Assembly: GCA_030141605.1 (NCBI GenBank)
Contig: JAQGDQ010000254.1
Location: 1 to 64,000 of the forward strand
Reading direction: 5' to 3'
Origin: Tubiluchus corallicola
Lineage: Eukaryota > Animalia > Priapulida
DNA: 64,000 nt
Both the position numbers and the translations under genes were made by a program. The notes under the pieces are model-generated. The model had not been told where the DNA came from. It saw nothing but the letters and a program-made list of their open reading frames with translations, and made no database searches. Below, one piece after another: positions 8,501 through 57,650 of this stretch; position 1 is the stretch's first letter, and each line of letters opens with the position of its first letter.

Positions 8501-11094
8501 ATGTTGACTTACCTGAGCTCATCAGCACAGCAGGAGATGTAGAGGCAGTAACAGAAAAGGCAACTGAGGAAACTGATGTTATTCCCGATTTGCCTGAAGT
8601 TACTTTAGAGAGAGTTGAACATGAGTTAATTGCTCCTGTAGTGCCACCTAATGCTAAGGAAATGGTGCTATCAGAACGTGAACTATCTGAATTGATTAGT
8701 ATTGGTGAGGTTATTGAACAAGTAACCAATGAATATGCAGACATTGAACATTATCCACAAAAGACCGAGATATCTGTAGAAGTTCACTGCAAGTATCCTA
8801 GGGAAGTTAGCTTTTTGATAGCAGACAATAAACGTGCTGATGAAGAAGACAAACTAAAGCCCACATTGAAGAAGAAGAAGCAAGTAAAGAAAGTTGCAGC
8901 TGTGGTTAAAAAAGAAACTGAAAAACCTGTTGTAGCTGCAAAGGTAATTCCTCTGTGCTTTGTAGAAATTAATTATGAGCACCCTGTACAGGCGTCATTA
9001 AATGTGTGTCTAGAACATGTCAAGGAGAAGTTGCCATTGCCACATATGCGAAAATCCAAATTCTTTCACGAAACAAAAGCTACACAAACTGCAGGAGTAA
9101 GCAGTTCTCTACCAGATTCACAGAAGATACTCAAAGGTCGAGATACTATTAAGAAAGTTCAAGAATCTAAAGCTTTATATTTAGGCCAATTTCATGCACC
9201 TGACATCTGCGGGATGGAAATAATTGTAGAATCTGACTCGGAGGAAGACTATCCTTGTTATACAGACAAAATTACATATTACAAAGAGGGGAAGTGGGGC
9301 ACTAAATCACCATCTCAGGAAAAGGGTGGACAAAGCACTGATTATTATAATGAACAGTCTGACACTTATCCCATACCTGTGCAAACACAAGTTCCTCCTT
9401 TGGTGGAAGAAACTGATGAAAGCCACATAAAGAAACTACTGCAAGAAGCAGAGGAGTTGAGACTTGAACATGAACGCTCTAAGCAGCCTGAGTATTTTGG
9501 AAGGAGAGACATGAAAGGAGTATTCAGTGAAAAGGGTGACATTTATGAGGAACGTAAGTCATACAAAAGTAATTTGCCAAAACAACAACATGACACTAAG
9601 CAGATCATGAAAAAGCCAATATCAACTTTTAAGAAAAAGTACGAGCTTGAAGTTGATCGGCGACAGAAAGCTTTAGTAAAACATGTCGAAATAAAGATTG
9701 AAGCAGGATCTGCCATTAAATTATCAGAGTGCAATAAAGGAACAGCAAAAGCAAAATCAAAGCCATCAGACCACAAAGAAAAGACGGACAGGCAAGAATA
9801 TTCTTTTGACCTAAAAGTACTTGAAAAGAAGGAACCACAATATAAAGTGAAAGAATCAATTTGGTATGAAGCTAAAGATATGACTGAAGCAGAGCTCATA
9901 CAGAAAGGATTGGCTGAGCATTGGAAGCAATACCGTCTATCTACTGAAGGAAGAGGTGAAGCACTAGTTCAACTCGTGGAAGTTATTGTAGATGAAAATG
10001 AAGATGACGAACGTATTGTGTACAGATTTATGAAGAGATTTAAAGAGGGTGATGAAAAGAAACGCACAAAACCTGAGGTTGTACGTCAAGAACCGTTAGT
10101 TACCTGCAGTACGCATGAAGAAAAGCCAGAACTTTCCCGACCACATTATCAACAGCCAGATATTCGTTTCAGACGGTCTACTGGAGATAAAAATCGCGAT
10201 GTTTGTTTAAGGTTACCAGATTTTTCCTGTAAAACAAATGCATTTGGTTCGCCTCGTCCTAGTAGACGTGATTTTTCAAAACTCTCTGATAATTCTGCTT
10301 TTGATATTTACAAAAGCCATTATTCTCGAGATCCACATAAAGGCTACTTGCATACCTCTTCAGATGACCACAAGTACGGGAGAGGTTCTGATTATAATGT
10401 TCGTCACTTATCTAGTGCCAGTGATTCACTTAGTCAAAGTGATGCTTTAAAACTGTCTTCGTTTGCTATTCCGAAACTTGTCCGGGGTAAATATTTGGCG
10501 GTGCCAGAACCAATGAGAGTTCGAAAGACTTCTGTAAAAAGCCCAAGTCCTTCGAGCAGTCCGCAAACGCCAGAGCAACGGCAGTTGTTTAAGAGAGCTG
10601 TGCAAGGTACACAGCAGCGCTTGGAAGAACTATCACCTAGCCTATATCACCGCACCACAATCACTCCACTACAGCAATCATCTGAGAGATTATCTCAGAT
10701 CAAACCCAAACGATACCACTCTCGCTGTTTGGATCATTCAGATGAAGCGAGTCCTGTGATGGATGCCAAGCAGCCATATCCATCTTCTAGTCAAGCTGCT
10801 GCAACGTGGCTGAAGCGGCAGGAGTTTTTTAGAGCAGAAAGTTCTATTCGGCGGCGTCATGGCAACGAGACCAAACAAAAGACTCCTGTTTACACTCATA
10901 GGACGAGTAGTAAGGAACAGTTATGTACTAGTCCAACTCTTTCGTGGGAATTCAAGGAAGAAACGCAGAGGAGGCGATCATCTGCTGATCTTCCCCAAAG
11001 TCTGCACTTTTCTGCCCGACTTTCTCCGCGAATATCAGTAGCTTCTAAAAGTCGTGACACGTCTCATTTGAAAAGGAAGCCAAAACTTGACTAA
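1..11094 (+). CDS. Giant repetitive acidic protein, 5'-truncated at window edge (probably a giant terminal exon); about 41 tandem repeats then a Lys/Glu-rich and Ser/Arg-rich tail
   Basis: Frame is open from base 1 (GAG GAT ATT...) to TAA at 11092-11094, so the TTG start at 58 in the ORF track is an artefact. Indels between units are multiples of 3 (198/201/213 bp). Family not recognised. Confidence 0.85.
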   Translation, partial: EDIEQVTKDVVEELDDIPDLVTVDESVDVILDDATLMPKDVELEITSAEAEQVVLSDAELPQLVIAGEDIEQVSKDVVEELDDIPDLVTVDESVDVILDDATMMPKDVELEIIARELQPEAEHVVLSDVELPELVSAAEDIEQVTKDVAEELDDIPDLGPVGESLDVILDDAALMPKDVQLEITSTEAEQAVLSDAELPQLVIAGEDIEQVTKDVVEELDDIPDLVAVDESVDVILDDATLMPKDVQLEITSTEAEQAVLSDDELPQLIIAGKDIEQVTKDVVEELDDIPDLVTVDESLDVILDDATLMPKDVQLEITSAEVEQVVLSDAELPQLVIAGEDIEQVTKDVVEELDDIPDLVTVDESVDVILDDATLMPKDVQLQITSTEAEQVVLSDAKQPELVSAGEDIEQVTKDVVEELDDIPDLVPVGESVDVILDDATLMPKDVELEIIVRELQPEAEHVVLSDVELPELVSAAEDIEKVAKDVVEELDDIPDLVTVDESVDVILDDATLMPKDVELEITSAEAEQVVLSDVELPELVIAGEDIEQVTKDVVEELDDIPDLVTVDESVDVILDDATMMPKDVELEIIARELQPEAEHVVLSDVELPELVSAGEDIEQVTKDVVEELDDIPDLVTVDESVDVILDDATLMPKDVELEITSAEAEQVVLSDVELPELVIAGEDIEQVTKDVVEELDDIPDLVTVDESVDVILDDATLMPKDVELEIIARELQPEAEHVVLSDVELPELVSAAEDIEQVTKDVTEELDDIPDLVAVDESVDVILDDATLMPKDVQLEITSTEAEQAVLSDDELPQLIIAGKDIEQVTKDVVEELDDIPDLVTVDESLDVILDDATLMPKDVQLEITSAEVEQVVLSDAELPELVIAGEDIEQVTKDVVEELDDIPDLVAVDESVDVILDDATLMPKDVELEIIVRELQPEAEHVVLSDVELPELVSAAEDIEKVAKDVVEELDDIPDLVTVDESVDVILDDATLMPKDVELEITSAEAEQVVLSDAELPQLVIAGEDIEQVSKDVVEELDDIPDLVTVDESVDVILDDATMMPKDVELEIIARELQPEAEHVVLSDVELPELVSAAEDIEQVTKDVAEELDDIPDLVTVDESLDVILDDATLMPKDVQLEITSAEVEQVVLSDAELPQLVIAGEDIEQVTKDVVEELDDIPDLVAVDESVDVILDDATLMPKDVQLQITSTEAEQVVLSDAELPELVSAAEDIEQVTKEVVKERDDIPDLVRVGESVDVILDDATLMPKDVELEIIARELQPEAEHVVLSDVELPELVSAAEDIEKVAKDVVEELDDIPDLVTVDESVDVILDDATLMPKDVELEITSAEAEQVVLSDAELPELVIAGEDIEQVSKDVVEELDDIPDLVAVDESVDVILDDATLMPKDVELEIIVRELQPEAEHVVLSDVELPELVSAAEDIEQVTKDVVEELDDIPDLVTVDESVDVILDDATLMPKDVELEITSAEAEQVVLSDVELPELVIAGEDIEQITKDVVEELDDIPDLVAVDESVDVILDDATTMPKDVQLEKTAHELQAEAEHVVLSDVELPELVSAGEDIEQVTKEVVKEDDGIPDLINVDESVDVILDDATLMPKDVELEITSADAKQVVLFDAELPEVVIAGEDIEQVSKDVVEELDDIPDLVAVDESVDVILDDATLMPKDVELEITSAEAEVVLSDAELPQLVIAGEDIEQVTREIVEEHDDIPDLVTVDESVDVILGDAALMPKDVELEITARELPSEAEQVVLSDIELPELVIAGEDIEQVTKVVAEELDDIPDLVAVDASVDVILDDATLMPKDVQLEITSAEVEQVVLSDAELPQLVIAGEDIEQVTKDVVEELDDIPDLVAVDESVDVILDDAALMPKDVELEITAHELPSEVEQVVLSDVELPELVIAGEDIEQVTKDVVEELDDIPDLVAVDASVDVILDDATLIPKDVELEITSAEAEQVVLSDAELPQLVIAGEDIEQVSKDVVEELDDIPDLVAVDESVDVILDDATLMPKDVELEIIARELQPEAEHVVLSDAELPQLVIAGEDIEQVSKDVVEELDDIPDLVAVDESVDVILDDATMMPKDVQLEKTAHELQAEAEHVVLSDVELPELVSAAEDIEQVTKDVAAELDDIPDLVAVDASLDVILDDATLMPKDVEFEITARELPAEAVQVVLSDVELPELVSAAEDIEQVTKDVVEELDDIPDLVAVDESVDVILDDATLMPKDVELEITSAEAEVVLSDAELPQLVIAGEDIEQITKDVVEELDDIPDLVAVDESVDVILDDATLMPKDVELETIARELQPEAEHVVLSDAELSQMVIAGEDIEQVSKDVVEELDDIPDLVAVDESVDVILDDATLMPKDVELEITARELQAEAEHVVLSDVELPELVSAAEDIEQVTKDVVEELDDIPDLVTVDESLDVILDDATLMPKDVELEITSAEADVVLSDAELPQLAIAGEDIEQVSNDVVEELDDIPDLVAVDESVDVILDDITLMPKDVELEISSTEAEQAVLSDVKLPELVSAAEDIEQVTKEVVEEHDDIPDLVTVDESLDVILDDATLMPKDVELEITARELPAEAEQVVLSDIELPELVIAAEDIEKVTKDVVKELDVIPDLVAVDASVDVILDDATLMPKDVELEITSAEAEVVLSDAELPQLVIAGEDIEQVSKYVVEELDDILDLVAVDDSVDVAFDDATLMPKDVELEITSTEAEQIVLSDVEQPELVIVGEDVEQVTKDVVDKLDDIPDLVPVGESVEVILDAATSMPKDVQLEITAHELQAEAEHVVLSVVELPELVSACEDIEQATEKVVEGRDDFPNVDLPELISTAGDVEAVTEKATEETDVIPDLPEVTLERVEHELIAPVVPPNAKEMVLSERELSELISIGEVIEQVTNEYADIEHYPQKTEISVEVHCKYPREVSFLIADNKRADEEDKLKPTLKKKKQVKKVAAVVKKETEKPVVAAKVIPLCFVEINYEHPVQASLNVCLEHVKEKLPLPHMRKSKFFHETKATQTAGVSSSLPDSQKILKGRDTIKKVQESKALYLGQFHAPDICGMEIIVESDSEEDYPCYTDKITYYKEGKWGTKSPSQEKGGQSTDYYNEQSDTYPIPVQTQVPPLVEETDESHIKKLLQEAEELRLEHERSKQPEYFGRRDMKGVFSEKGDIYEERKSYKSNLPKQQHDTKQIMKKPISTFKKKYELEVDRRQKALVKHVEIKIEAGSAIKLSECNKGTAKAKSKPSDHKEKTDRQEYSFDLKVLEKKEPQYKVKESIWYEAKDMTEAELIQKGLAEHWKQYRLSTEGRGEALVQLVEVIVDENEDDERIVYRFMKRFKEGDEKKRTKPEVVRQEPLVTCSTHEEKPELSRPHYQQPDIRFRRSTGDKNRDVCLRLPDFSCKTNAFGSPRPSRRDFSKLSDNSAFDIYKSHYSRDPHKGYLHTSSDDHKYGRGSDYNVRHLSSASDSLSQSDALKLSSFAIPKLVRGKYLAVPEPMRVRKTSVKSPSPSSSPQTPEQRQLFKRAVQGTQQRLEELSPSLYHRTTITPLQQSSERLSQIKPKRYHSRCLDHSDEASPVMDAKQPYPSSSQAAATWLKRQEFFRAESSIRRRHGNETKQKTPVYTHRTSSKEQLCTSPTLSWEFKEETQRRRSSADLPQSLHFSARLSPRISVASKSRDTSHLKRKPKLD

Positions 11095-15174: not shown

Positions 15175-18100
15175 ATGACGGGGGCAAATCATGCTTTTCT
15201 CAAACTTTCTTTATGTACATGCTTTGTCGTTTTGGTAAAAGCCGTTGTACCACCAGCTGCACTGCAGACTGCTTACATTCTTGAACCAGGTGATCTGATG
15301 TTGGGACTGTTGTTAGGCGTCCATGACTACCACCCCGTAAAACCCTGTGGAGAGAAGATAACTGAGTATCGCCGTGTTCCTGCCGTATATACTATGGAGT
15401 TCTTGAAACAGAAGTTCGAAGCCGACCCCACCATTCTACCGAATACCAGCATCGGTTATGTCTGGTACGACACTTGTTACAAGGATTCTACTGGAATGGC
15501 ACAAACATTGCATTTTATACCAGATTCTTGTACCTCTGACAGCTCTGCCACTACAAGTACTCCGCTTTTGCAGCCTCAAGATAGCAATGATTTCTTGAAC
15601 ATGAAAGGCAATGAATATGTCGATGTCGTAGGAGTAGTAGGCGCAACATTCAGCTCCACAAGTATTCTAATCAATCATATCCTTAATATGTATGAAATAC
15701 CGCAAGTCAGTCAAGCATCAAGCAGTGATACACTAAGTGACATCAGCAGACATGAATACTTCTTTAGAGTTTATCCGCCTGATAGGTATCAGGTGCTGGC
15801 CATCATGAGTGTTATCAAGCATTTTCAATGGAAATACATTTCAATGATATACTCTGAAGGTAGTTATGGTGAAACTGCAGAAAAGTACATTCACGAAGAT
15901 GCCAAAAAAGAGGGAATCTGCATGGCTGTGGTGAGAAAGGTGCCATATAGTGCCACTTATGCCGACTTTGATGCATACGCCAATGAGCTCATCGAAAACT
16001 CCAAGGCAAGGGTGGTAATACTGTTTTGCCTTGGCGACCATGTACCATGGCTTTTCAAAAACCTCCAAGCAAAAAACTACACGAATCATTTCATTTGGCT
16101 TACCAGCGAAGCTTGGGGAGGAACCTTTGCTGATTACAGAGACATAGAGCAGATGTCTCTTGGGACCATTGCCATCACTCCAACTGTCAGAGATGTCCCA
16201 GAATTTGACCAGTGGTTTTCATCACTGACTCTGAACGATTTTACAAAGTATGGGCTGATGAATATCTTTTGGGAGAAGAAATTTAATTGTTCGATAAACG
16301 GAAGTAGTGGCACTCGTACATGTGACCGCAACACCAGATTGGGGGCACAACATGAACCACACCCAGTGACATCCTTGTTACTTGATGCAGCCAATGCATT
16401 AATATACAGCATAGATAAGCTACTTAAGAGAAAATGTCCTGAAACAACAGGTCAGGCTACTAGAAACTGTATAACAGGAAAAGAAGTACTTGAATCTATG
16501 AAGACAATAAGTTATCCCGGGTATACAATGGATACGATTCGCTTTAATGAAAATGGCGATATCCGGGCCCAATATGTGGTGCAAAATTTCCATGCAAAAC
16601 ATGGAAAGTATATTTTAGAGCACATAGGATCTTGGAGTGAGGCTGAAAACAGATTACTCTTGTTCAAAAAAGTGACCTGGGCAACAAGAACAATGGAAAA
16701 CAAGTCTGAAGAATATTTTGTTCCAGAATCTGTTTGTGCAACATCATGTCCGCCAAGACATTACAAGCAACAGTTGGAGGTGTCATGTTGCTGGGAGTGT
16801 AGAGCATGCAGAGAGAATGAATACCTGATTAACAACAATACGAAATGTGTCGCTTGTCCAAAATTCACCTGGCCCCAGGAATCTGACGATACGAACTGTG
16901 AGATTATTCCCCCAAGTTACCTAGATGTGACAGGAACTGCTGGGCTCATCAGTATTGTTCTGACAATCTTTGGGATTCTTTTTACCTTTTTGGTTACCGT
17001 TTTATTTCTGTGGCATCGGAATGCTAAGCTAATTAAAGCATCGAGCAGAGAACTGAGCATCATAATCCTGGTGGGCATTCTACTGTCGTTCTTTGTTGTG
17101 TTTCCTTTGTTATTGAAGCCGAAGTCGGGACACTGTGCCATTGGTCGTTTTGGGTTCATACTCTGCTTTACAACCATCTATGGTCCACTGTTGGCAAGAA
17201 CGAATAGAATCTACCGCATCTTTGAAGCTGGCAAGAAGACAAAGATGGTGCCGAGTTGTATAGCACCAAGATCACAGATGATGCTGAGTGGACTATTCAT
17301 ATTGATCCAGGTACGTCTGTAATGCACATTCCAATAAATATTAATTTTTTTACATTGATCACTTGACAAAATCATGCAAATCGTTTGGAGTTCAAAAATG
17401 ATTCTGCAGTTTGTAATAACAGAACAGAATTAGCCCATGAAGGGATTAAGGACTGGAAAGCCTAGAAGAAATTACTGAACTTAGCCCAGATCCCTTAATG
17501 AGATTTGAATTCAGTGACAGTCTTGGCTTTCTTACTGTAAACAACATTATCCACCCTTACTTTACCTAGAAACAATAAAAATGGTGATAAAGAACATAAT
17601 TGTATAAGATTAGACATTCACTTTGTACTTGCGCATGGTAAAAAGCAGACTTTGTTCATGTCCTGCAATAAATAGACATGTTAGACTTAATGCAAACTTG
17701 GTGCTGACTGAGTCTGAACTCAGGCTGGTTAGAAAGTAAAGGGTTTGATATCACATATTAAGGATAAATGAGAATTGGCAAATTGCCAGAATCACCCAGG
17801 CAAAACTAATCAAAGCTACTGATGGTTTGATTTGTGAGACATCCTCACTCAACCTGCATTCAGTGAATAATTGATAGTGCATAAACTAAGAAATTTGCAA
17901 AACAAACCATTTAATGACTTACTTTACAATGATCTTTAAAAAAATAGTCATTTAATAAAACTTTTGTAGACTGTAAGCAGACAGATCACTGTTTGGTCAT
18001 CATTACCTAACAACATATGCACAATATAAGAAATTTCAAATTTACTCATTAAGTTTGTCAGTTTGATAAAGTCGTGAAAAAATGCTTAATCCATCTCATT

Positions 18101-18934
18101 CTTGTCATTGTATAAGACGACAAAACTAGGTTGAATTTGCAAGATAACTCACTATGATTTTATATACCATAATATTGTTTTTCTTCTTTGATGACACTAA
18201 TCACTTTTAGTTTAACTCTTCACTAATTTGTCTGCACAATTTGTTTGAAATTAACACGTTTCAATTAGTTTAGCCATTTTTTGAAGTACGTTCTGAAGTT
18301 ATTTTCTCATCAATATTCTCACATAAATATAAAACAACAATATTTATTGATATCATTTCATTTGCAGGCAGTAATTAGTACAACATGGGCAATAATAGAA
18401 CCACCCAAAGTTGTCCTGGAGATGCCACAAGTGGTGTTACGCTACGTGGAATTACGCTGTCACATGAGTGCAGGGGAACTCGTTACCTCCGTCAGCTATA
18501 ACCTTTTGCTGATCATCATCTGCTGTTACTACGCTTTCAAGACACGCCGCCTACCAGACAACTTCAACGAGTCCCGTTTCATCTGCTTCTGCGTTTACAC
18601 CACCATGATCATGTGGCTCGCATTCCTGCCCACATACTTTACGACAGCCACGCCGCTGTACAGACCCATCTACCTGTCATTGGCACTTATCATCAATGCA
18701 TACGTAACCACTGCCTGCTTTTTTATACCGAAATTATATGCGATTTACTTTGCGACAGAAGACAAGATGAATTTAACCAAGGATGGTCCGGCAGGTAAAG
18801 TGGGCAAAGCTAAAGCTAAGGTAACACCTGGAGTCTCTGTCACCCAGCCAGGTACAACAGGCCCAACAAATTCTGAATCTGTCAGTACAAGCACAAAGAC
18901 TAATCCACAGCCCTCAACAAAACAGAAGGCATAG
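15175..18934 (+). CDS. Metabotropic glutamate receptor-like class C GPCR, about 900 aa; exons 15175-17310 and 18368-18934
   Basis: Signal peptide, Venus flytrap motifs (PGDLMLG, PQVS, YFFRVYPPDRYQ, GSYGE), Cys-rich domain (PESVC, CCWEC), 7TM (IKASSRELS, RTNRIYRIF, KTRRLPDNFNESRFI, FIPKLY). Phase-0 intron CAG|GTACGT...TTGCAG|GCA joins the two ORFs in frame. Confidence 0.93.
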
Positions 18935-20022: not shown

Positions 20023-28983
<8,961 letters not shown>

Positions 28984-30479
28984 TACAAAGCAGCAAACAC
29001 AAAATCTAAAACAACGAGAACAAAGACTTTTTATACAAATGACAACATATGATATGCATTAAGAGCAAGAGGCAAGAGGCAAGAGGCAAGGCCAAGTGAC
29101 AGGCAATGATCGTGTCTTTACATCTGTTTTAATGGCATTTGTAGATAACAACTCAAATGACACAAAGCCATGTAAATTCAGAAAACTTATCGGCTATGAT
29201 TGGCTGGTCCAATGTCAGTGTAATCGCAAATGAAATTATATACATCATCACATGATCATCACGTCTGTCTTAGATATAGGACAGGCGGAATTCTAAAATA
29301 AAAAAATCTGCCATCAAGACTGGTAAACACAGCAGTAATCCAGCAAAAAAACTAAACATTGGGGTGCCAGTAGTTTGTCAGCACCACTTCCATATGACAA
29401 AACAAGCACAAATTCTGGATGATTTACCGAATCAGGATAGAAATAACCTCAAACTGTTGGCTTTACCTAAGATTCTGAGAAAATATCAACTCTACAACAA
29501 ATAAAACAAATACTGTTTTGGGAGTGAAACCCAAGCATTTGACATGAGCTGTATAGTTTTGTTTAAATTCTAAGTCAAAATTTTATTAATATTAACGTGT
29601 AAGCCTCTTATCTAGAGAAGGTATGAAGCCATAGCATGTAACAAGAACACACAATATAACAATTTAACATAAAAAACATTTTAATACAATAAGATATAAA
29701 GCAGTTTTTATTGGATTCAAAAGAAACAGGGCTGAAAAATGCCTACATGTTTTTTGTTCAATGTGTATACAGTGTATCATATCGTTACAGTGATTATGTG
29801 TTAACTACACAAGCACCACAAAAAGTTGTATAGGCCTAGAAAAATGATGGTATTGTATAATGCAGACTTGGGTTCCTTCTACATCAATATCAATATCAAA
29901 GCCATAATAAGTAAACAATGATGCGGTGGATGCAAAGGTGAATTAAAGAATAACCTGGAATGTCTTTCTAACCTAAAAAAGTCTCGAAGTTTGTCAAATC
30001 CAGGGTCAAATTTCCTCATGCATTTCATTTATTATAAGTACTTACCATAAGTGTTTACCATAACGGTAAGCAAGTTGTGAGACTGGTCATGTAACAAAAC
30101 TATTATCAGAACGTAAATAGCAAAGAATTCACTGTGCCCTTCGTGGATAGATATTTACAAAAAACGTGCTCTGCCTCCAATCATACCTCAAAGGTATTAA
30201 TATAGGAGATCGCTAGTGCATAAATATTTGTCTAAAGCATTTTTAAAACAGATAGTCATTTGTAGTCTTATAACTTCTTCGGGCAGGGAACTTCAGAGAT
30301 CTATTCCCGCCTGACTCACTTAGTCTAAGTGAGGTCTGACAGACAAAGAGGAAGTATGACATGAAATGACCTATCCATAGCCAATGTAAAAGCTAGATGT
30401 ACTAGAGGTACATCCATGGATCACCTGTAATGCCTGTGCTCTACTGGCATTTAGTGTGTATAGCACAAGGAATTTTTTG

Positions 30480-30900
30480 TCATTCCATTCATGTTCCAAA
30501 TTTCTTTTGAATTCATTTATTGACTTAGATGCTACAGTTTTGCTGCTTAAACTATTCCAGCTGTTAATTACTCGGTTGCTAAAGGCATACTTCCTTTCGT
30601 CCAGTCTGGCTCGGGGTTTGTAGAATTTATAAGGATGACCTCTAATTAGAATGAATTCTGAATTCTTAAAAAAGGATGACTTGTCCAAAACGTCAATTTT
30701 ATGATTTGATTGATGAATCTAAAAACCTGAATCATGTTACTTCATTGGCATCTATATTGTAAAGATGGAGTGCTTAATTTTCTAAGTCTTTCTGCATAAT
30801 CCAAGTCACTGAATGATGGAGCTAGCTTGGTAGCCCTTCATTCCACATTTTCTATGAATTGAGTATCTCCTACAAACCTTGGTCCCCAAACAACAGTTTG
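30480..30900 (-). mobile_element. Decayed 3' fragment of non-LTR retrotransposon ORF2 (CR1/L2-like)
   Basis: Translation VWGPRFVGDTQFIENVE*RATKLAP...YAERLRKL..PSLQYR, then after a frameshift RGHPYKFYKPRARLDERKYAFSNRVINSWNSL, a typical CR1/L2 post-RT C-terminus with in-frame stops. Confidence 0.85.
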
Positions 30901-32040
30901 CACTACTTCTGTTTCCGCAAAATTTATACCAGAGGTTTGTTTTTTCGTAATACACTTTCTGTACTCTCGATTCACAAAAGGAGCTTCATGTTTTCTAGCT
31001 CGTTTTGAATTCAGTGGTATGTGTCTGATGTTTCACAACCTCATTCAGTAGCATACTGTATGCCCAGTAACTATCATCAACGTCATCAGAAATCATACCG
31101 TCGAATGGTATACTAGCAATGTCTTGTTTAAGCATATTTATATCAAGGTTTTTGTAACTTCTGTAGGTTATGTCCCTATTCTTAATACATTATACTATAT
31201 TTATACCATACATTATACTATACTATACTATACCCTATACGTAGTCCATTTGGAGTGGTTACTGTAGATACGCTCGATCCTCTTCACCACCAATGACAAG
31301 CAAGCAGACCTCAATAAAATGTGGCTGTTTGCGAGATTAACTTGTTTTAGGGATCACACCAAATATCTTTTACGTCAACTTGCCTTTGCTGTTTCCTCGT
31401 TTTAAATTGTATTTTTAGTTTCAACAGCTCGTTAACAAACATCCTAGTCAGTAGTAATTTATCTATGCTCCATTCACTTATATAGTGAGTGGGACGTGTT
31501 AAATTCCATTTGCTCCAATTTACTGCGGTCTGATCAGACAGTAAAACTCTCTGGGTTAAAAGGATGAGCTCGAGTGCTCCAACCAAGTACAAGACGCTAC
31601 TTATGTGCGGTAGCAGACTAACACGAGTTTCAGTGAGTGATTTGGGTAACTTATTTAACTATACGACTTTACCTGAAGTAATTCACCTAAGCACGCAAAA
31701 ACAGCACAGAATAGATATGATTCACGTTTACAGCTCTCTCCTTTCAAATGAAACAGTATTAAAGTCATTTACTACATTAAATTTAGTAGAAATAAATTAA
31801 ACACAACACGTGAAAGAAGCGTAAGGCAAAAGTACAGTAACAGAGATCTTTGAACATATTTACAAGCTACAAAAGATTTTTATAAAAGATTACTCATATC
31901 GCTAGCACGTGTTTCATACGAAATGTACAATATCCTTGTTATTTTATATTTGAAACTGCAATAGCCTTTTATGCAAGTATCCACAGTCAGCGGCAAGTTA
32001 AACTGACTTAAGTAATTGACGCGAGTTGATTATTAGGACC

Positions 32041-35000
32041 ATGGATAGTGTCGGTAGTCACGCAAATTCCAAACCTGGTAGAAAACGCAAGGTCGACCTT
32101 GCGTCTAACTCTAAGTCTAATCTAGCGCAAGAGAATGAGGAGGACGACATGTCTTCTGATGTATCTGCCAGGCGTCGGAAAGGTTGTTTTCATATTGAAT
32201 TTACGATGCTTAGTAGTGTTATTCGATAGCTATTTGATAATTAACTATAAATTCGTCTTTATTTCAAATTATGTGTGACTTTTCTGCTAAGATCTATTTC
32301 TGATAAATCATTTCCGTTAGTTTTAATGTATTCCCCTTGTACTAATCTATTAACTATAATTATATTGTAGTGTACATAATAACGAGTAACTATAATAATA
32401 TTGTTATAGTACATCTTTTCATCAAAGTGTAAAATTGTTATTATTTTTTCTTCGCAGCTATGAAAAGGGAAGGTAAACACGCAATACAATAGGTCGAAGT
32501 ATGATTGAAATATGTCTTACATAATCTTCAAACAAATCCAGCAGCTACAACAACACTCATTTTTTAGCCATATTGTCTATTTCGTCACATATTCACATTT
32601 CATTACATATTTTGTTTACTCCATTTTTCTGCACTAATTCTTGTGTTCCATAGTCCTTGGCATTATGCCTAACATAATTTAATTAAACACTATTGCATAT
32701 TTTTGTTTCATTATATTTCATTTGATTTTATCATGCATATTTTGTTTCCTTCACTGATTTATTATTTATGTTTCATTTTTTTCTTTTGGTTTGACTTTTA
32801 GCTTGTTTTATGTTTTAATCAGTTAAATGCTTTATGTATTTTGTTAATCATAATTTCATATTTTCCATTTTATTTTAATGCTTTTTTTGCATACCCTATT
32901 TAGTTATTTTGCTTTCAAGTTTAATCTCTTTCCCTATAAATTTATGTTAACCGTTGATTTTCGTAACCTACTCCATAACTATATTACACCTTTCAATTAG
33001 CAGCGCTAGAAATTTTTTACAATTTACACTAACCTGAGAAGGGTAGCTGACTTGATGACAAATTGGTTTTTCACTACCCTTTCTCCTGCACCCCCTAACT
33101 CTTTCCTTTATTCATAATTTATGCTTTTTGATTAATAACTATAGCAATAATAGTCTACTTGTATTCTGGTGTAAATGAGGAGATAAATATAATGTCTATA
33201 TCTATGATGATTAGTTTTACCTGGTACTAAATGCAGTCTTTTGTTCTTTATACATTTGTGCTTCTATGAAAAAAGTGTTTGTTAAACAAATTATTGCAAG
33301 GTTAAAAAAATTAAAAGTAGTAGTTTAACTTGTTGAAAAAATGTTCCAAAAATGGTGCATTTGGAGTTCATGTAAGCCCCTGACTTAAATAATGAGGACT
33401 GTGGCAATTTTTGTATAAGTTTGTTTGTGAGAGTCACCTAAAATGTAAACTAACCTGTTGTGCTGTTTATGAAATGTTATATTTTTCCATCATTTGTGAA
33501 TTACAAACTATTAAACTCTTGCGTAAATTTGTGCTTGTGACTTTTCTTGTGCTTGGGCGGTCCCGTTTTGAATGACCATTATTCCATCAATGACATCATA
33601 CATCGGCCGAAGAAAAGCAGTGCTCTGTTAACTTCTGTCTAAAGCATAATAAGTTTATACAAAAAATGAAATAACTAATTTTTACAGTATTTTTTTGCAT
33701 GAATATTAGGTAAGCTGCAGAAGTTTGAATTAATTTAAGCAGCGCACATTTGCAGAAAGCCACGGTGCCCTTACAGAAAGTCACAAAATCCACCAGTTGT
33801 GTCATAATGTTCAAGTGAATGGCAGTTACCACTGCACCTGAATATTTCCACACTGCTCTGTTATAATTTAACTTTATGCTTTAGAAACAGTTTTTTACAA
33901 ATTTCTTTGTTGTATTTTAAGTAATAACAGTGAAATAAACCCAACATGCTACATGAGTTGTCCTTTCCTTTAAAGCCAAAAAGGGTTAATGTATTAATGT
34001 TTTAGCGTGAAAATTTGAGAATCATTGTCTTTGTTTCTGTTTCTTAAAGGCTTAGCAACCAAATTAGCTGAAAGAAAAAGAAGATCTGTTGAAAACGAAA
34101 AGAAAAAGAAAAGCAGCCATCATAGTTCCATTACTAGTTCTAATGCACAAAAAAAGACAACTAAAAAAACTGGAAAACGGAAATGTAGGCGTGAACCTGT
34201 TGGTGATACTATAGAAACAGACGGCTTTCTCAATGCATCAGGTGGGAGTATGGATCAAACTGACTTGAGGAGTGGACGTTTTCGAAGAAAAGACGTGCAT
34301 TCTTCAGAAAAGCCTGAAAAGAAAAGTCAAGCAAAAAAAAGAAAAACAAGTTCCATAAAAATTAATCGCCAAGATATTTCTGGTAATTCGACAATGCCAA
34401 GAAGTGATGAAATTACCAGAAATAAAGTCAGAAGCAAACACTTTTCAAAAAAGTTGTCTTCAAAAAAGACAAGTGAACATGTTTCCTTGAGTGCACAGAA
34501 GAAAAAAGCAATTGGAAATTCCTCGGAAGGTGCCATTAAAGCTTATGATAACGTCTCAGTGTCAGATGATATGAAGTCTGCAAAATCATCAAAAAGTCCA
34601 AAGAAAAAAAGCGAAATTGTTAGCGACAGTAGCGAATCAGAGTGGGAGGAAGTTGAAGGTTTGAGCACAACACTTTAGTTTAAATCTCATTGACAAAACT
34701 GGTTAATGGCTAATACACTGTGCATTGCATCACATTAAGTGTTCAGAGTTCTAGTCCCCGTTCACATTCAATTTTTCCTCCATTTCTGATTTTTTAAGTT
34801 TTCATGAAATTAGATCTTTTTCAAGAAGACAGGTTTAACTAAAGTGCATAAGACATGATATGTATATGCCAACATAATGTCAGCTGATGTATCTGGTGTT
34901 TCATTCGTGGTTTTGACATCAGCAACTGATTAACTAAAGCAGTTTTTATGTTTAGTACTGCTGATTAAGTTGAATTTCTATATATGTAATGTTGTGAATT

Positions 35001-50188: not shown

Positions 50189-51524
50189 ACACAAGGCGTT
50201 TCCACAGTTGAAGAAAAACTCACTTTTTACGAAATCATGGTTTCTGCTTTCACATTTTGGGAGAAAATTTTCCTAGTTGTTAAATAATTTACACTATTTA
50301 AAAAGTTGTTAGATTGCTGTATGTGTAATCAAGTTTTCTTGGTATACTAATGTGGTTCAAATGCAGAATATTTTCTACGTTGATCATGGACTGAATAACA
50401 AAAAGTGTTAAACTAAGTAATCACAGTTGTTGATGATGTGTAATGCGTAGAATCATGTGATTTTGCATACAGGAATAATTACAGTTGTAAAACGTTTTTT
50501 CATTGAATATTAAATTATTCATCATCACGTACACAATTCTATTGCATAAATCTAGAAAAAAATAATTACAGTTCTTAGCAAAAGACCAGTTTGTGTTCTG
50601 TGTTCACTATTATCAGCCAATAATTACTAACGACCGATAAGCAAGATCCACACGTGACTAAATGATTATCTGATCATGTCGTCCCAAATTTCATTTGCAA
50701 AACGTCTTAAACTTGATCATCTATTCATTCAGGTTGCAAGTCTCCTGTCGTTATGTTTACAATGGTAACAATGTATTTGATGTAGGATTTTTAAAGGACA
50801 CTGTAAGAGCAATACTATCAGACTATACACTAGCAAAACATGAGAAATCTTATTCTTGTTTTACAGTATGGCTAGTACTATTGTACATGTGCAGGTGCTA
50901 AACAAACTAAAACAGTGCTCAGTAACAAAGGTGATAAACCAAAATTAATAAGCTAGAGCTATGTGCTGCATCATTTACACTTGTACGTAGCCCAGCCACA
51001 CTCAGTTATCAGGTTTTGACTGTTCTGCTGACTTGATTACTTTTGTGTACAAGTTTACCTTGCAAAAGATACAGTGTAAAACTCTACTTTCGTGCTCACA
51101 GCTACTGTGTCAGGGCCTTGGGTTCTAATATAAAATAATGGGAAATCCGAGTTTAATCATACAAATTAAGCAGAGTTAACCGAAGAGCATTTCTTATTTC
51201 TGTTTAAACTTAACAACGAAAGTGTTTTTGTAAGCCACAATGTAGAAACAGCTAATGTCAGAGTATGTCTGTGACAGGCTGAAAGCCTGAATTTACGAAT
51301 GATTTAACTACACATGTATTAGCAAGATAAAATGTATGCCAGTGACATGTAACTACATAACAAAACAACTAACTAAATGCTAAATTACATTAACCACTAA
51401 TAACTAAAAAAAAGTGTTGCTTCTAACTATATTCTGTATTGTAAAAGCTTTAAACAAAGCATGTTGTGAGACAAGAGAACAATTATTTGCATTTAGTTCG
51501 CATTAACTAACGAGATATTTAATT

Positions 51525-51530
51525 TTTATT
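51525..51530 (-). terminator. Candidate polyadenylation signal for RBM28 (or for the whole cluster)
   Basis: AATAAA on the minus strand about 220 nt after the RBM28 stop. Confidence 0.45.
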
Positions 51531-51747
51531 TTATCAACATGATTTAATGTAGGTTTATAACATTACTCAATTCAGCAAAGCAAGAAAAAGGCTCAATTTC
51601 TGCACACAAAAAACAATTTTGCATTTAGCTGTAAAATCTCTGCTCGTAATGTGGTAAAACACAAGTTCTAGAATCTGAAAGCGTGGTCTGATGCATGTCT
51701 GCTTACAAAAAACTATAAGCTGTAGAATTTATAAAGAGCATTAAATG

Positions 51748-54060
51748 CTAACTATCAAACCATTTGCTTTCTTTCATACCAATACCCGCAAACTTGTTTT
51801 TGTACTGATTTATTAATTTGTCCAAACTGTCACTTGTCTTCTGCTTAACTCGAATGTTTTTCTGCTTCTCGGGCTTCACAACATCTCTTTTGACCTGCTG
51901 CCTAGACTTTTTCCCAATTGGCTTGTTAGATTTTACTGCCCTGGCTTTGTGCCGAATTTTCGGGCCAAAATGAGAAGGCAAAGTATTTGGTGGTTTTCGC
52001 TTTCCAGATGACATTGCTGTGCCGTCCTTTTGATGCTTCTGAATTTTACTTTTAGTATCCTTAACAATTGTCCCAGTATCTTGCTTGGCTTTTTTGGATA
52101 CACCTCCAACATCATCTTTTATCTTTCGCTTTTCAGCGGTGCCTTGTTTCAGCATATTTCGCTCTCGTTTTCGCTTCTGGGCATTAAGAGCGACCCTGTT
52201 TTCTAACGAAAATTCTACGATGAGCCTTCGGTTGTTAGGAAATAGATTTGGATTGTTATTGGTGTTGTGCAATGCAGACAAAGCATCTTCGTGTTTGGCA
52301 AACTCCACAAAACCATAACCAAAAGACTTGGCGATGCCCTTGCTGTTAACCTGCCTCCTGTCCCTCATTACTCTAGCCTTGGTAATCCTCGTGATTTTAG
52401 TTTCAGCAGCTTTTGCAAATATTTCCTTTAAATTTTTGTCATCAACTGACTTGGGAAGATTTCTCACACATAGACGGACACACGAGATGAAAATATTCAA
52501 GTTTTTCAGTTTCTGTCTTTTCGTCATTTCTAACTGTTGACGTTTCAGGAGGTCCTGTTTTGGTGTTCCAGCAGCTGCTTGCGTTCCCATTCGTATTAAT
52601 CCCACACGTGCAAGGTGGAGGTTACGGTTATCCTTTGGCTCTTTTTCTTTTTGGGTAAGCTTGCTCGCTTCTTCTCGATTAATGGCTTTGGTTATTAACA
52701 GCTTTCTGTTTTTCAAAATCAATGAATTATCGGCTGTATTACTCTTCTGTATGCAATCTTCTGCTGCTTCCACTGTAGCAAATTTCACAAAAGCTGTCCC
52801 TTTTGGATGCTCGGTGAGAGGATCCACACAAACTCGGATGTACACTACTTTCCCAAACTGTTTGAAAATGCCGTCTATATCTGCTTCCTCTGCATCATAG
52901 CTGAGATTTCGTATAAAGACTGTTTTGCCTTCGCCAACATCATCTGGAAGCTTTAATCTCTCTTTTTTTGATTTAGTTTTACCACTTTGTTGCTCTACGT
53001 CATACTCGTCTTTTGTATCACTGCCATCATGATCTAAATCACTATCAGCATTATCATCGTTTGGATCAGAAATACTACCGTCCTCATTGTCGTCATCACT
53101 GACACTGGATTCTCTGCTTTCATCATTGTCGTCAGACTCACTAACTGCACCTTTTTTGTCAGATTCGGTCATATCGTTACCTTGCCCCGTGACCTTGCTT
53201 TGCATTAAAGTCATGTACTGTTGTTTCGGCAAGGCCCAATCAACAGCGATTTTTCGTCCCTTCACTTCCATCATGTTCACTTTGTCCACAGCCTCAGCAG
53301 CAGCGTTAACATCAACAAACTGAACAAATGCAAAACCAGGCATTTTTCCATTGCCCTTTTTTGGTATAACTACTTCACTCAATTCACCGTATTTGGAAAA
53401 GATCTTTGTAAGATCGCTCTCTGAGCACTGAAAGGGAAGATTCCGAACGATTAACCTTGATTTTTTTAAAGACAGCTTCTGCCGAGAAGTTGCTTGTTCT
53501 TTGTCAGCTAGCAAGAATGTTTGCGCTTTGCACTGTTTTATCATTTTTCCACTGAGTTTCTTTCTTGCTTTAATTGCACTTCCAACTGTAGCAAATGTCA
53601 CTAAAGCTGTTCTATCAATGACATCAATACTGGCAGGATACTCTAAAGATCGGACATTCTTCAGCTTTTTCAGAGTTTGCATTACATCTTCTTTTACTAC
53701 AGTTTCATCTAAGCCACTAAGTACTAAAACTTTCTTATCGGCATCTTTTTCATGTATCACGTTCTTTGAATTTTCCTTTGCTTTACGTTTTTCTTTTCGT
53801 TTATCTAATTTATGCTCGGCAAACTGAATGAACACTTTCCTGTTCTCCACAGATTTCACCTCTTTCATTGCGTTTTCCGCATCCTCCCGCATAGCAAACG
53901 TGACGTATCCAAAACCTCGGCATGTATCACTCCCCTTTTCCTTAACTACGAAGCACCTATTTACCGGTCCATATTCACTAAATACATTTTCTAGCTGCTT
54001 ATCTGAGGTTGTATAAGTTAAGTTTCTCACAAATAATGTTTTGCTACAAACACGAGCCAT
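51748..54060 (-). CDS. RBM28: RNA-binding protein 28 (Nop4 ortholog), 770 aa, intronless CDS
   Basis: RRMs (TLFVRNL/RGFGYVTF; RLIVRNL/GFAFVQF/IAVDWAL; TVFIRNL/KGTAFVKF; RLCVRNLP/GYGFVEF), acidic linker, KDNRNLHLA, NNNP...RRLIVEFSLEN and basic tail. Confidence 0.95.
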   Translation of the reverse strand: MARVCSKTLFVRNLTYTTSDKQLENVFSEYGPVNRCFVVKEKGSDTCRGFGYVTFAMREDAENAMKEVKSVENRKVFIQFAEHKLDKRKEKRKAKENSKNVIHEKDADKKVLVLSGLDETVVKEDVMQTLKKLKNVRSLEYPASIDVIDRTALVTFATVGSAIKARKKLSGKMIKQCKAQTFLLADKEQATSRQKLSLKKSRLIVRNLPFQCSESDLTKIFSKYGELSEVVIPKKGNGKMPGFAFVQFVDVNAAAEAVDKVNMMEVKGRKIAVDWALPKQQYMTLMQSKVTGQGNDMTESDKKGAVSESDDNDESRESSVSDDDNEDGSISDPNDDNADSDLDHDGSDTKDEYDVEQQSGKTKSKKERLKLPDDVGEGKTVFIRNLSYDAEEADIDGIFKQFGKVVYIRVCVDPLTEHPKGTAFVKFATVEAAEDCIQKSNTADNSLILKNRKLLITKAINREEASKLTQKEKEPKDNRNLHLARVGLIRMGTQAAAGTPKQDLLKRQQLEMTKRQKLKNLNIFISCVRLCVRNLPKSVDDKNLKEIFAKAAETKITRITKARVMRDRRQVNSKGIAKSFGYGFVEFAKHEDALSALHNTNNNPNLFPNNRRLIVEFSLENRVALNAQKRKRERNMLKQGTAEKRKIKDDVGGVSKKAKQDTGTIVKDTKSKIQKHQKDGTAMSSGKRKPPNTLPSHFGPKIRHKARAVKSNKPIGKKSRQQVKRDVVKPEKQKNIRVKQKTSDSLDKLINQYKNKFAGIGMKESKWFDS

Positions 54061-54178
54061 GATCTCAAGGAATTAGATTCGATTAACTAGCATTCCAAAC
54101 TCTTTATATTCATGAGATGCTAAGCAGCTCTTCAGCTACCGGCTAAATCTTTGTTTCAATTGCTTTGGCTGGATCATG

Positions 54179-54710
54179 CTAATCATTTGATTCTATATTC
54201 TTAAGTTGTGCTATAAACTTTTTCTTTTCTGCCTCTATGTATTCATCCAGATCCTGGAAAAAAGAAAAATATGACAATCTAGTGGAGAACTAATACTGTC
54301 CTATGTTCCTGTAGAGAGTATATGCTTGCATTCATATATCAAAACCATCCTAAGCAATTATTCTGCAACTAAGGCAGATTTATGATTGTACAAAAATAAA
54401 AAAATCTGTCAATTTTATTCATTTTTTACTAAATTCCAATCTCAGGTACTAACCAGGTGAAATATGGATTTGATCGTGTTAGGAAACGTAGAAACCAGGT
54501 CTGATAAAAATGTATTCATCCTATCTCCTGAATTATGCACCATAGATCACCAATATAAAAACCTCAAAATATTTTTATTAAAAACTGTTGAGACAAACTT
54601 ACATCAAGAGGTCTGTAGATCATGTGGACAACTTGTGATCCAGCAAACATGGATAATCCAGCAGCTATTAAAAATCTAAGGTATGCACCCCATGTGACAC
54701 CAGCAGGCAT
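54179..54710 (-). CDS. UQCC6: UQCC6/BRAWNIN (C12orf73, fly Sloth2) microprotein, 60 aa; exons 54710-54603 and 54253-54179
   Basis: MPAGVTWGAYLRFLIAAGLSMFAGSQVVHMIYRPLD|DLDEYIEAEKKKFIAQLKNIESND*; family hallmark MPAGVxW..Y...SM.AG..VVH..YRP; phase-0 intron GTAAGT...TTCCAG. Confidence 0.9.
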
Positions 54711-55284
54711 TCTGTGCAGCAAAATCAGGCTCTGCAAAAATATCAGGTTTAACCTTAATATTAACACCATAATATTAATATCACCGCACTGAAGGGAATT
54801 TCATATTAAACGTTAATGACATAAACACCCTTAAAGCAGTAGATTCTGTATTTCAGCCAGTAAGTGTGTCAAATATTTCAGCCCATGCCTTGAATCCTTA
54901 GTGTTCCTGTTCAAATCCCAACTGGAGTTACCACGTCTTAGCCCAAATCCAAAATGAGTCTCCGGTTGCTTTGGCAAGAGCTCCAGTTGACTGTCATGTT
55001 CACAGTGTGCTAGTGGCAAAGCCAAATTCACATAGAAATGATCCAAAATTTCATCGATTCTTGAGATAGTATTTAACGGTAATTTATTGTTAACTTCAGT
55101 TATATTGTGGTTATTAATACAATAACTTATTGACTATTATTGAAGCTTTGTTATTTCAGCATCCTATTCAAAACTTCCTATGCCACCTTCTATTAAGTGA
55201 CACTAAAAATTCATTACCACAACCACTACTGCGGACTTACTAGGTAATTTCTGTTTTATAACATATTCCTGCACATAATTAACT

Positions 55285-56383
55285 TTATTGTTTGACATTA
55301 ACAGGATTTTCGGTTGTTTCTACAGAATTTTCAATTGTTTCCACTAGCGCTAACTTCTTGGCTCGCTTGGCAGCTTCTTTGCTCTTGAATACCCTATCTA
55401 AAAATAAAGTATTTTTATTTTAATGTGTAATGTGCACAGTGAGCATACAATAGGCAAGAACTAAACTAAAAGCAAAATGAGTCCTGCAGTGGTAATTGCA
55501 CTGTAAGAACAAATGCAGCTAATGTTTAGAACCTAAACTAAAAAAGTATAACATCAAATAAATATTTCTGCATGTAATTATTGGATTAAGTACATTTGCA
55601 AATGTAAATTTATGCAATGTAATATTTTTCTATTGACAGCACAGTACTTTACAATATAGCTCTCTTTCTATATAAAACTAATTACAATTGCTTTGGGAAT
55701 CTTTTAATATTTGGCTAAAATTGAATGTGAAGCATTATAATACATGTTGCAACCACTTTTATTTAGGTTATGTTACAGTCAACCTCGGATATAAGGGACA
55801 CCGCAGGACTCAAAAAAACCGTCCCTTATATCCAATGTCCCTTATAGCCGAAGTTGAGTCAGACCGAGGGTGGATCTAGATCTGTATTTTTACACATATT
55901 TTTATGGATCATTGCTACACATTCAGTGCAAACGGTATGTAGGAAGCAATGAATGTTGCGAGATGTATGTGACTGCGGAAACCGAGCTAATCGAAGATCG
56001 AGTATGCGAAAAATTCAGGTTAAAAATCGATCAATATCACTTTTGATCATAGGGTCCCTTATATGCGAGGTAATTTACCTGGCTTTCTATTACGCGGGAC
56101 GTGAAGATATCGATCCTTATAACTGAAAGTCCCTTATATCCGAGTACCCTATATACGAAGATTTTTTCATAGGACAACAAATAACTCAAAAAGTCAAGCA
56201 ACAATTTCAGTGAATGTTTAACTTACAAAAGTTTGTTTCACCCACAGTCCAATTAATCATCGAAAATTCCAGTGCTGCGCCCAAAACAAAGAAAACTGGT
56301 AAAAATCTGTAAATTCCAAACACTCTTTTTCCAGGCCAGCGGTCCAAAATTTTCCGTAAAGTCTTACTGTATAAGAAAACCAT
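55285..56383 (-). CDS. UQCC5: UQCC5/SMIM4 (fly Sloth1) microprotein, 89 aa; exons 56383-56227 and 55397-55285
   Basis: MVFLYSKTLRKILDRWPGKRVFGIYRFLPVFFVLGAALEFSMINWTVGETNF|YRVFKSK...; family hallmark PGK..FGIYRFLP.FFVLG..E..MI...VG...FY; phase-1 intron GTAAGT...TTTTAG. Confidence 0.92.
55776..56165. mobile_element. pogo/Tigger-like MITE in the UQCC5 intron, right end apparently truncated
   Basis: TA|CAGTCAACCTCGGATATAAGGGAC left end; inverted subterminal GTCCCTTATA(TCC) motifs near 55821, 55837, 56054 and 56129. Confidence 0.65.
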
Positions 56384-56757
56384 ACTAAACGAACTCCACG
56401 TTTCGTTCACGTATAGCAGCTATAGATGTGTTGCAGCGATTTTACACCATACTTGTTCATGCCGCGCCCTCTCTTGTGCAGTTGTGCTCATGCGATAAAA
56501 TGCCAAATATGTCACCTAGTCCGCCCAAGTGCTTCTCTGAAGAAGTAAACGAACTATTCGAAATAAAGTTTTCTTTTCAACTCGCTTTTTCTGAATAAGC
56601 ATGCTCACATTCACGTCTAGTAGTTTTACTTGATTATTTATGAATGAAATTTCTGAAAAAGCCAGTTATGAATTCTGGCTTTTGGCCTAGCCTATCTTGT
56701 CTTAATTTTGGCCTAAAACGTTTTGGTAAAATGTTGTATTGTGTGTTAGGTTATATG

Positions 56758-56997
56758 AAAAATATATAAAATACAAATATTTAAATACAACATTAATATT
56801 TATATATTTAAAAATACTATAAGAATGAGAATATGCAAAAATTTTAAATAATAAAATGGAATCAAAAACAAAGAAATATATATAAAATACAAAATATTTA
56901 AATACAACATTAATATTTATATATTTAAAAACACTATAAGAATAACAATATGCAAAAATATTAAATAATAAAATGGAATCAAAAACAAAGAAATATT
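56758..56997. repeat. AT-rich tandem duplication, about 117 bp x2
   Basis: ...TTTAAATACAACATTAATATTTATATATTTAAAA...TAAATAATAAAATGGAATCAAAAACAAAGAAATAT occurs twice. Confidence 0.9.
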
Positions 56998-57417
56998 TAT
57001 AGACTACAGTGAAATAGACTGCGAAATATACAAAAATATCCGAAATATCCAGAAGAAAAATGCTAATGAACGCGGTACGAAATGCTAAACCAATAAGACA
57101 TGTCTATTGTGTAGCTACACTTATTTACTATTTACACTTTTACACACAAACCAAACAATGAAAAACACATGCACGCAAAAATATCAAATTCCAAATTAAC
57201 AATATGAGCATGAACACACAAATTATGTCTGTTTATAATAAAAATATTAGCAAAAATAATCAATTTGCTAGTTAACCATTTATTTACAACAAAAAGCACT
57301 AGCAGAAATATTGATAACTATTCAACCGAACTTTATAATAAAAAAAACGCTGGTACCACATACAAAATGAAACAAAATTATAGATAAGGATGTGCGCTAA
57401 AACTGCATCTATTTTGT

Positions 57418-57650
57418 ATTTATTCATTCACCAAAAACATGCAGTTACGCAAAACTGCATTAAGTATAAAAATCATAATTAACTCATGAATAAAAAGAGT
57501 TTCCTTGAATAGAGACGGCCAGCAAGGGTAGCTAGAAACTAATGCATTTATTCATCAACAAAAATATACAGTTACGAAAAACTGCACAAGTAGAAAAATC
57601 CTAACTAACTTATGTAAAAAAAGATAGTTCGTTGATAGGAGACGACCAGT
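57418..57650. repeat. Degenerate direct repeat, about 105-bp core with about 128-bp period
   Basis: TTTATTCAT...CAGTTACG.AAAACTGCA...GAGACG.CCAG occurs twice. Confidence 0.75.

Follow-up and report, generated by a model that had tools for sequence, protein, structure and literature searches.

The microproteins sloth1 and sloth2 (SMIM4 and C12orf73) are encoded in Drosophila on one bicistronic transcript (PMC9681215), and the pair is also linked in choanoflagellate, sea squirt and lamprey (PMC9681215). Here we examined the corresponding genes, UQCC5 and UQCC6, in a stretch of 64,000 nucleotides (nt) from the priapulid worm Tubiluchus corallicola (contig JAQGDQ010000254.1, positions 1 to 64,000; hereafter the window, whose numbering is used throughout), where RBM28 follows them on the same strand. 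A first-pass annotation of this DNA had cited the fly transcript, correctly, and had proposed a tricistronic message. The UQCC5-UQCC6 bicistron is already known; RBM28 as a third member is the new part. We place not quite even confidence in a reading in which one spliced mRNA of about 3.2 kb would be made from one promoter, with RBM28 translated from it as the third frame, probably by reinitiation. That a long RNA spanning UQCC5, UQCC6 and RBM28 exists at all appears likely.

Several described systems can be set beside this locus. Drosophila sloth1-sloth2 holds the same two families, in the same order and strand, as UQCC5-UQCC6 of the window (PF15114 and PF14990, both above cut-off). In the fly, a spacer of 5 nt lies between a weak first and a strong second start (PMC9681215), whereas the window has a spacer of 65 nt once a predicted intron is removed, two AUGs in it and a strong first start, and the leaky-scanning design is not reproduced. 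The sea squirt pair lies unannotated inside LOC100183920 (XM_018812254.2, about 2.6 kb) (PMC9681215); a third open reading frame (ORF) may stand behind it, a possible precedent. The main text of the fly paper has 0 occurrences of RBM28, and its section on the pair describes two ORFs only (PMC9681215). No link of the SMIM4/C12orf73 (sloth) pair to RBM28 was found in titles or abstract starts, subscription journals being outside the scope of this search.

Human MKKS puts a large ORF and two small ones, uMKKS1 and uMKKS2, on a single message (PMC4705651), with proteins unrelated to those of the window. In human bicistrons immune to nonsense-mediated decay (NMD), such as SNURF-SNRPN, exon junctions lie in ORFs or within 55 nt of a stop (PMC3951408); SNURF ends 45 nt before its junction and the window's UQCC5 44 nt before a predicted one, SNURF-SNRPN being a vertebrate case. 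Green algal polycistrons (PMC11892635) share with this locus a short first ORF, a long last ORF and a short inter-ORF distance, but they show weak first starts and fewer upstream AUGs, neither of which is seen here (15 upstream AUGs vs 13.4 expected).

Layout of the UQCC5-UQCC6-RBM28 locus

Re-reading of the ORFs and Pfam matches bore out the gene order, strand, coordinates and sizes of the first-pass annotation. The same was true of the 118-nt gap from the UQCC6 stop to the RBM28 ATG, the lack of AATAAA or ATTAAA in that spacer, its one TATAAA (54108), and an AATAAA at 51530 past RBM28. All three genes lie on the minus strand in the order UQCC5, UQCC6, RBM28, with the following features (aa, amino acids; o/e, observed/expected ratio; UTR, untranslated region).

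56384..56683, minus strand: likely shared promoter and 5' end (predicted); CpG 13 observed vs 11.1 expected, o/e 1.18
56227..56383, minus strand: UQCC5/SMIM4 (sloth1) coding exon 1; PF15114, E 7.6e-28; ATG at 56383
55398..56226, minus strand: UQCC5 intron, 829 nt; GT-AG ends, frame kept
55241..55397, minus strand: UQCC5 exon 2 and 44 nt of spacer; stop TAA 55287-55285; protein of 89 aa
54732..55240, minus strand: predicted spacer intron, 509 nt, containing AATAAA 55088; best spacer donor (5.1 bits) and second-best acceptor (5.8 bits)
54603..54731, minus strand: UQCC6/C12orf73 (sloth2) exon 1 with 21-nt leader; ATG 54710; PF14990, E 1.6e-18
54254..54602, minus strand: UQCC6 intron, 349 nt; GT-AG
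54179..54253, minus strand: UQCC6 exon 2, coding part; stop TAG 54181-54179; protein of 60 aa
54061..54178, minus strand: UQCC6-RBM28 spacer, 118 nt; AUGs 54177, 54113 and 54093; TATAAA 54108
54143..54178, minus strand: opening 36 nt of that spacer, a UQCC6 tail either lost or reached by stop read-through; matches the last 12 codons of a relative's UQCC6
51748..54060, minus strand: RBM28/Nop4 orthologue, 770 aa, intronless; RRM_1, E 3.6e-70; one 2,313-nt ORF
51510..51747, minus strand: RBM28 3' UTR, predicted 3' end of the whole unit; ATTAAA 51548, AATAAA 51530, ATTAAA 51523

The adjacency of UQCC6 and RBM28 is not an assembly error, because a contig of a second data set, run X1, bridges the gap (53617-54269, 7 differences in 653 nt), with the layout and the UQCC6 stop codon common to both data sets. 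X1 was classed as DNA by content, its contigs spanning introns, and its independence from the window's source is uncertain. Another X1 piece, over the UQCC6 exon 1 area (54556-54749), had 0 differences to the window, and the spacer AUG at 54113 was missing from the X1 allele. A further run, X2 (RNA by guess), gave three short contigs, on RBM28 only, with no bearing on linkage. Elsewhere the window is not compact: the 10 introns in the coding part of RtcB measure 396-1,300 nt and coding regions are otherwise 1 to 4 kb apart, so a gap of 118 nt is unusual locally. Within the UQCC6-RBM28 spacer we found no unusual or internal ribosome entry site (IRES)-like fold (fold z -0.41), and no tRNA or Rfam RNA was found in the region.

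UQCC5 had 227 homologues at E <= 0.01, many of them carrying the names SMIM4 or sloth 1. RBM28 begins at a conserved N-terminus, its first residues aligning with named RBM28-like proteins, and has four RRMs, an acidic linker and a conserved C-terminal end, with 42-46% identity to four named RBM28-like proteins in the alignment. A quick maximum-likelihood tree took in 40 proteins, namely 38 hand-picked from 120 listed matches, the window protein and P0001, a close relative described below; in it the last two grouped with Priapulus caudatus (SH-aLRT 99). RBM28/Nop4 has a nucleolar role in 60S assembly, as known from yeast and human (PMC4859800). In the match lists for RBM28 and UQCC5, compared by eye, no named species was common to both among the matches listed, nor were UQCC5/UQCC6 of Priapulus caudatus among them. 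A metagenome scan of 114 candidate stretches gave one RBM28 locus, L001, and no UQCC5/UQCC6 match better than E 0.009; L001 was dropped as a useful relative (69% GC, 45% identity).

The absence of introns from RBM28 is as expected of a retroposed copy. We dropped a candidate target-site duplication around the gene, as the 17-nt flanking match was not significant against controls (equalled in 11.5% of 253 natural windows and in 9.6% of 500 shuffled ones). Inverted arms of 21 nt (17/21; 54088-54108 and 51730-51750) closely flank the RBM28 ORF, one beginning at the stop codon. Chosen from 54 inverted pairs, they are of mixed significance, with the alignment equalled by 1.6% of 188 control windows and the energy by 25% of 60.

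Evidence for a proposed shared spliced transcript

The evidence for a shared transcript comes mainly from two records of a relative. P0001 is the nearest relative of RBM28 (82% identity, rank 1/630, next best 42%), and P0249 that of UQCC6 (94% over 36 aa, rank 1/163 by HMMER with a UQCC6 exon 1 query); each comes from a single Logan contig of 3,239 nt. An exact tie at this size has a chance probability of about 2e-4 (10/58 other short-contig sizes fall within 500 nt of 3,239), and the equal size by itself suggests that the two proteins sit on one shared contig. P0249 crosses the UQCC6 intron position without an intron, while P0245, P0251 and P0252 run into intron sequence at the same UQCC6 residue, placing an intron there in three other animal sequences. 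Because P0249 lacks an intron that these three keep, its contig is likely RNA-derived.

P0249 also bears on the junction between UQCC5 and UQCC6. Their genomic distance is 574 nt, with 11 ATGs within, and removal of the predicted 509-nt intron, scored with splice-site matrices built from 12 local introns, cuts the spacer to 65 nt. P0249 was called with 23 extra N-terminal residues, of which the last seven match the 21-nt leader past the acceptor (17/21 bases). The Tyr-Leu before this leader matches the six bases before the donor at 55240 (6/6, vs 3/6 for the unspliced intron end), a score reached by 1/83 GT sites between 56200 and 54740, and for this reason the contig likely continues into the UQCC5 3' exon. 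The junction thus fits the relative's contig over two codons and supports, rather than proves, that the UQCC6 leader is likely spliced onto the UQCC5 3' exon in the relative. Two AATAAA motifs after UQCC5, at 55289 (overlapping the stop) and 55088, would also permit an RNA with UQCC5 only. By length, once three ORFs and two spacers are subtracted from the relative's 3,239-nt contig, 278 nt would remain for both UTRs; the window's spliced model comes to 2,949 nt plus a 238-nt 3' UTR (~3.2 kb). At the predicted spacer donor, X1 carries a small rearrangement (55210-55242), where the joint steps back 33 nt and 13 extra letters stand.

Similarity to P0249 also continues past the end of UQCC6. BLASTP similarity carries on through the stop TAG, 26/36 bases of the following tail fit P0249 codons (control windows: mean 15.4, none as high), and the two frames share the next in-frame stop as their end. 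The opening 36 nt thus belong to UQCC6, as a tail since lost or still read through, which leaves 82 nt for the older spacer. Relative to P0249, the TAG comes 12 codons early; the base after it is C, X1 has it as well, and the codons downstream are still similar. This early stop may represent a recent truncation or stop-codon read-through. A UQCC6-RBM28 fusion by read-through is ruled out, as the length of the spacer does not divide by three and the UQCC6 frame closes 36 nt on. Neither an RRM nor a UQCC5 domain was found in any of 14 longer UQCC6 relatives scanned (14 of 150 listed). One relative from another organism, P0354 (156 aa), joins an N-terminal UQCC6 (PF14990) to a C-terminal EFCAB10 EF-hand (PF24548), as a fusion or a merged gene model.

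CpG content separates the upstream regions. In the 300 nt before the start, UQCC5 and the XPC gene of the window are near expectation (13 vs 11.1, o/e 1.18; 8 vs 7.1, 1.13), while UQCC6 and RBM28 lie well below it (4 vs 11.6, 0.35; 2 vs 8.6, 0.23; Poisson p against o/e 1.0 of 0.01 and 0.009). Gene bodies gave o/e values of 0.49 and 0.54, the gene-free 57-64 kb 0.90, and the start of a G protein-coupled receptor (GPCR) gene 0.65. The region upstream of UQCC5 is likely a promoter, and those upstream of UQCC6 and RBM28 resemble gene body. RBM28 5' synonymous sites were CpG-depleted like those of other genes (ratio 0.53, p 0.14). The idea of an undepleted RBM28 5' half (codon-boundary CpG 20 vs 21.1) found no support in a synonymous C/T test and was dropped. 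The E-box CACGTG, present in 77% of human and 21/25 fly ribosome-biogenesis promoters (PMC2570694, whose text leaves RBM28 unnamed), has five sites in the window, two of them at the RtcB/XPC promoter (31807, 31906) and none close (about 600 nt) to the start of RBM28 or of UQCC5.

These results refine what had been argued from the spacer. Its lack of A[AT]TAAA is real but weak evidence for read-through, since neither motif occurs in 72%, 69% and 78% of the 118-nt windows drawn from three control regions. Neither a CpG-rich promoter nor an E-box precedes RBM28, but a start from TATAAA 54108 could still be accommodated. The claim that UQCC6 and RBM28 share a transcript draws indirect support from the equal 3,239-nt contigs, the spliced UQCC6 of the relative, the junction with the UQCC5 exon and the lack of a CpG promoter before RBM28, short of settling the matter against an RBM28 start nested within the unit.

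Proposed translation of RBM28 and competing explanations

On the reading with one message, the promoter upstream of UQCC5, predicted from CpG content, would fire, and three introns would be removed (the UQCC5 intron, the 509-nt spacer intron and the UQCC6 intron), the last two of which appear spliced in the relative's contig. The RNA would end near 51510. UQCC5 would be read first, and UQCC6 would be reached 65 nt later by leaky scanning or reinitiation, like the fly gene. RBM28 would be reached past short upstream frames, with ribosomes resuming scanning and reinitiating, presumably at low, damped output; the last of these frames has 6 codons and a stop 12 nt before the strong RBM28 AUG. AATAAA 55289 and TATAAA 54108 may yield shorter one- and two-cistron forms. 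For MKKS, we take the small ORFs to be mitochondrial and short forms to arise by alternative polyadenylation.

Of the mechanisms that the first-pass annotation had offered for RBM28, two lost ground and reinitiation was left over. Pure leaky scanning is disfavoured because upstream AUGs are not depleted and the UQCC5 start is strong. Trans-splicing is disfavoured because the UQCC6-RBM28 spacer has no good acceptor: its best AG scored 1.1 bits, against -1.6 to 8.8 (leave-one-out, median about 5.8) for local acceptors. In the model, two exon junctions lie inside ORFs, one lies 44 nt past the UQCC5 stop and none follows UQCC6. The rule given for NMD-immune messages is that no junction outside an ORF lies >55 nt past a stop (PMC3951408). 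With its junctions in ORFs or 44 nt past a stop, and none in RBM28, the model message would therefore escape junction-dependent decay; the intronless RBM28 would permit this NMD-immune architecture.

A number of observations weigh against this reading. The model has 15 AUGs upstream of RBM28 vs 13.4 expected in 636 nt, hence no depletion, and the UQCC5 start is strong, with A at -3 and G at +4. UQCC5 and UQCC6, at 89 and 60 codons, are long by the 55-codon limit quoted for reinitiation (PMC4705651); reinitiation past them is expected to be poor and output low unless ribosomes come via short frames. The junction match weakens with length: at 3, 5, 8 and 16 codons, 2, 2, 5 and 8 of the 83 GT sites do at least as well, and the choice of two codons was made after the match had been seen. 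No UQCC5 protein from the 3,239-nt contig was among the 120 listed of 227 matches (31-102 aa searched), a size bound similar to one that had hidden P0249 in a UQCC6 word search (5 proteins found). That P0249 and P0001 share a contig is read from their equal size, and a short-read contig across genes does not prove a single molecule. The opening 600 coding nt of RBM28 are rather rich in CpG (o/e 0.87), and UQCC5's own promoter is also without an exact E-box. The CpG argument moreover presupposes gene-body methylation. Such methylation presumably occurs in priapulids; our literature search gave no paper on it for Priapulus. Lastly, TATAAA 54108 may serve as a TATA box or as a variant poly(A) signal.

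The explanation that makes most of this TATAAA is that the long RNA serves only UQCC5-UQCC6 and borrows the RBM28 poly(A) site, while RBM28 comes from a nested mRNA begun in the spacer or in UQCC6 exon 2 and sharing its 3' end. A start near 54078 would lie below all three spacer AUGs and give a clean leader of ~18 nt before a strong AUG. Such a start would explain the undepleted AUGs and fully fit the 3,239-nt contig. We nevertheless judge it unlikely, though deserving of serious attention, given that TATAAA occurs in 7-12% of control 118-nt windows, that the 500 nt before RBM28 are CpG-poor (4 vs 13.1) and without an E-box, and that upstream promoter elements would fall in UQCC6 coding sequence. 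It is distinctly less probable that two ordinary mRNAs, one for UQCC5-UQCC6 and one for RBM28, overlap in the spacer and were merged by the assembler, with no molecule holding all three frames. Logan contigs are short-read assemblies, in which a two-gene contig proves no single transcript, and TATAAA 54108 has the form of what we take to be a known variant poly(A) signal. For a merge the RNAs must overlap, with RBM28 starting above the 3' end of UQCC6 in CpG-poor sequence, and the next A[AT]TAAA past UQCC6 comes only at 53574, 600 nt inside RBM28.

An operon, whose single precursor would be resolved by spliced-leader trans-splicing into one mRNA per gene, seems very improbable. AT-rich spacers of ~100 nt resemble those of nematode operons, UQCC6 has an acceptor 21 nt ahead of its start codon, poly(A) signals follow UQCC5, and assembly could mask short leaders. 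Against these stand the poor acceptors of the RBM28 spacer and the UQCC6 acceptor of the relative, which appears cis-joined to the UQCC5 exon; no paper on priapulid trans-splicing was found by title or abstract start, nor did a search on spliced leaders in spiralians give any. Hardly to be credited is the possibility that the relative misleads altogether, its contigs being of equal size by chance or being DNA of a species that has lost the two introns, so that the genes are mere close neighbours. Human RBM28 presumably has introns, which would imply intron loss at this locus if the ancestor had them, and the one contig for P0001 and P0249 is deduced from size. The tie in size is improbable by chance, however, both records are top matches, and RtcB keeps its 10 coding introns, so intron loss is not general.

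Neighbouring features and biological meaning

Repeats occur in and around the locus. A high-copy element with short direct and inverted repeats lies at 55770-56175, inside the UQCC5 intron, where X1 depth rises to as much as 3016 (55750-56271) vs 5-30 elsewhere. Two tandem 117-nt copies, 94% alike, stand at 56775-57008, upstream of the likely UQCC5 promoter. Part of the UQCC6-RBM28 spacer (20 nt, 54097-54116) recurs inverted at 57483-57502 with one difference (E 0.002 within the window), 1.1 kb upstream of UQCC5. From 56.4 to 64 kb no gene was recognised on reading the stop-to-stop ORFs.

Farther away, RtcB (minus strand, 508 aa, 11 coding exons) lies head-to-head with an XPC/Rad4 gene (plus strand), 28983-32042. 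A strong acceptor lies 23 nt ahead of the RtcB ATG (29006) and there is a strong donor at 31672, so the gene likely starts from the CpG-rich XPC promoter. The RtcB exon 3 acceptor and first bases are duplicated in tandem (about 45 nt; 27144-27230, minus strand), giving two possible acceptors. A class C (metabotropic glutamate receptor-like) GPCR occupies 15175-18934 on the plus strand, its first 715 codons in one exon. An ORF of 3,661 aa at 109-11094 (plus strand) consists mostly of tandem acidic repeats of about 65-70 aa, then a basic, serine-rich tail. It had no Pfam family above cut-off, its first 500 aa were without an Atlas match at 0.9 or more, and it may form a single giant exon of a protein of muscle or cuticle.

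To our knowledge, animal mRNAs for three conserved, unrelated proteins are rare, and known cases are usually AUG-depleted or trans-spliced. Signs of neither are seen here, so the locus would offer a compact, natural setting in which to study how ribosomes get to a large housekeeping ORF past two long ones upstream. It also illustrates that the 5' region of an annotated gene may conceal a conserved microprotein bicistron; gene callers would report RBM28 alone. Were RBM28 instead to come from a nested start, the case would be a neat one of genes sharing a promoter and a poly(A) site, and modestly interesting. It is possible, if somewhat more doubtful than the shared message itself, that in this worm lineage the ancient UQCC5-UQCC6 bicistron took in an intronless RBM28, and that this essential 770-aa factor of ribosome assembly has no promoter of its own. 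RBM28 would then be translated behind two conserved ORFs and 15 AUGs, with no trans-splicing, by serial reinitiation or internal entry, and complex III assembly would be tied to 60S biogenesis.

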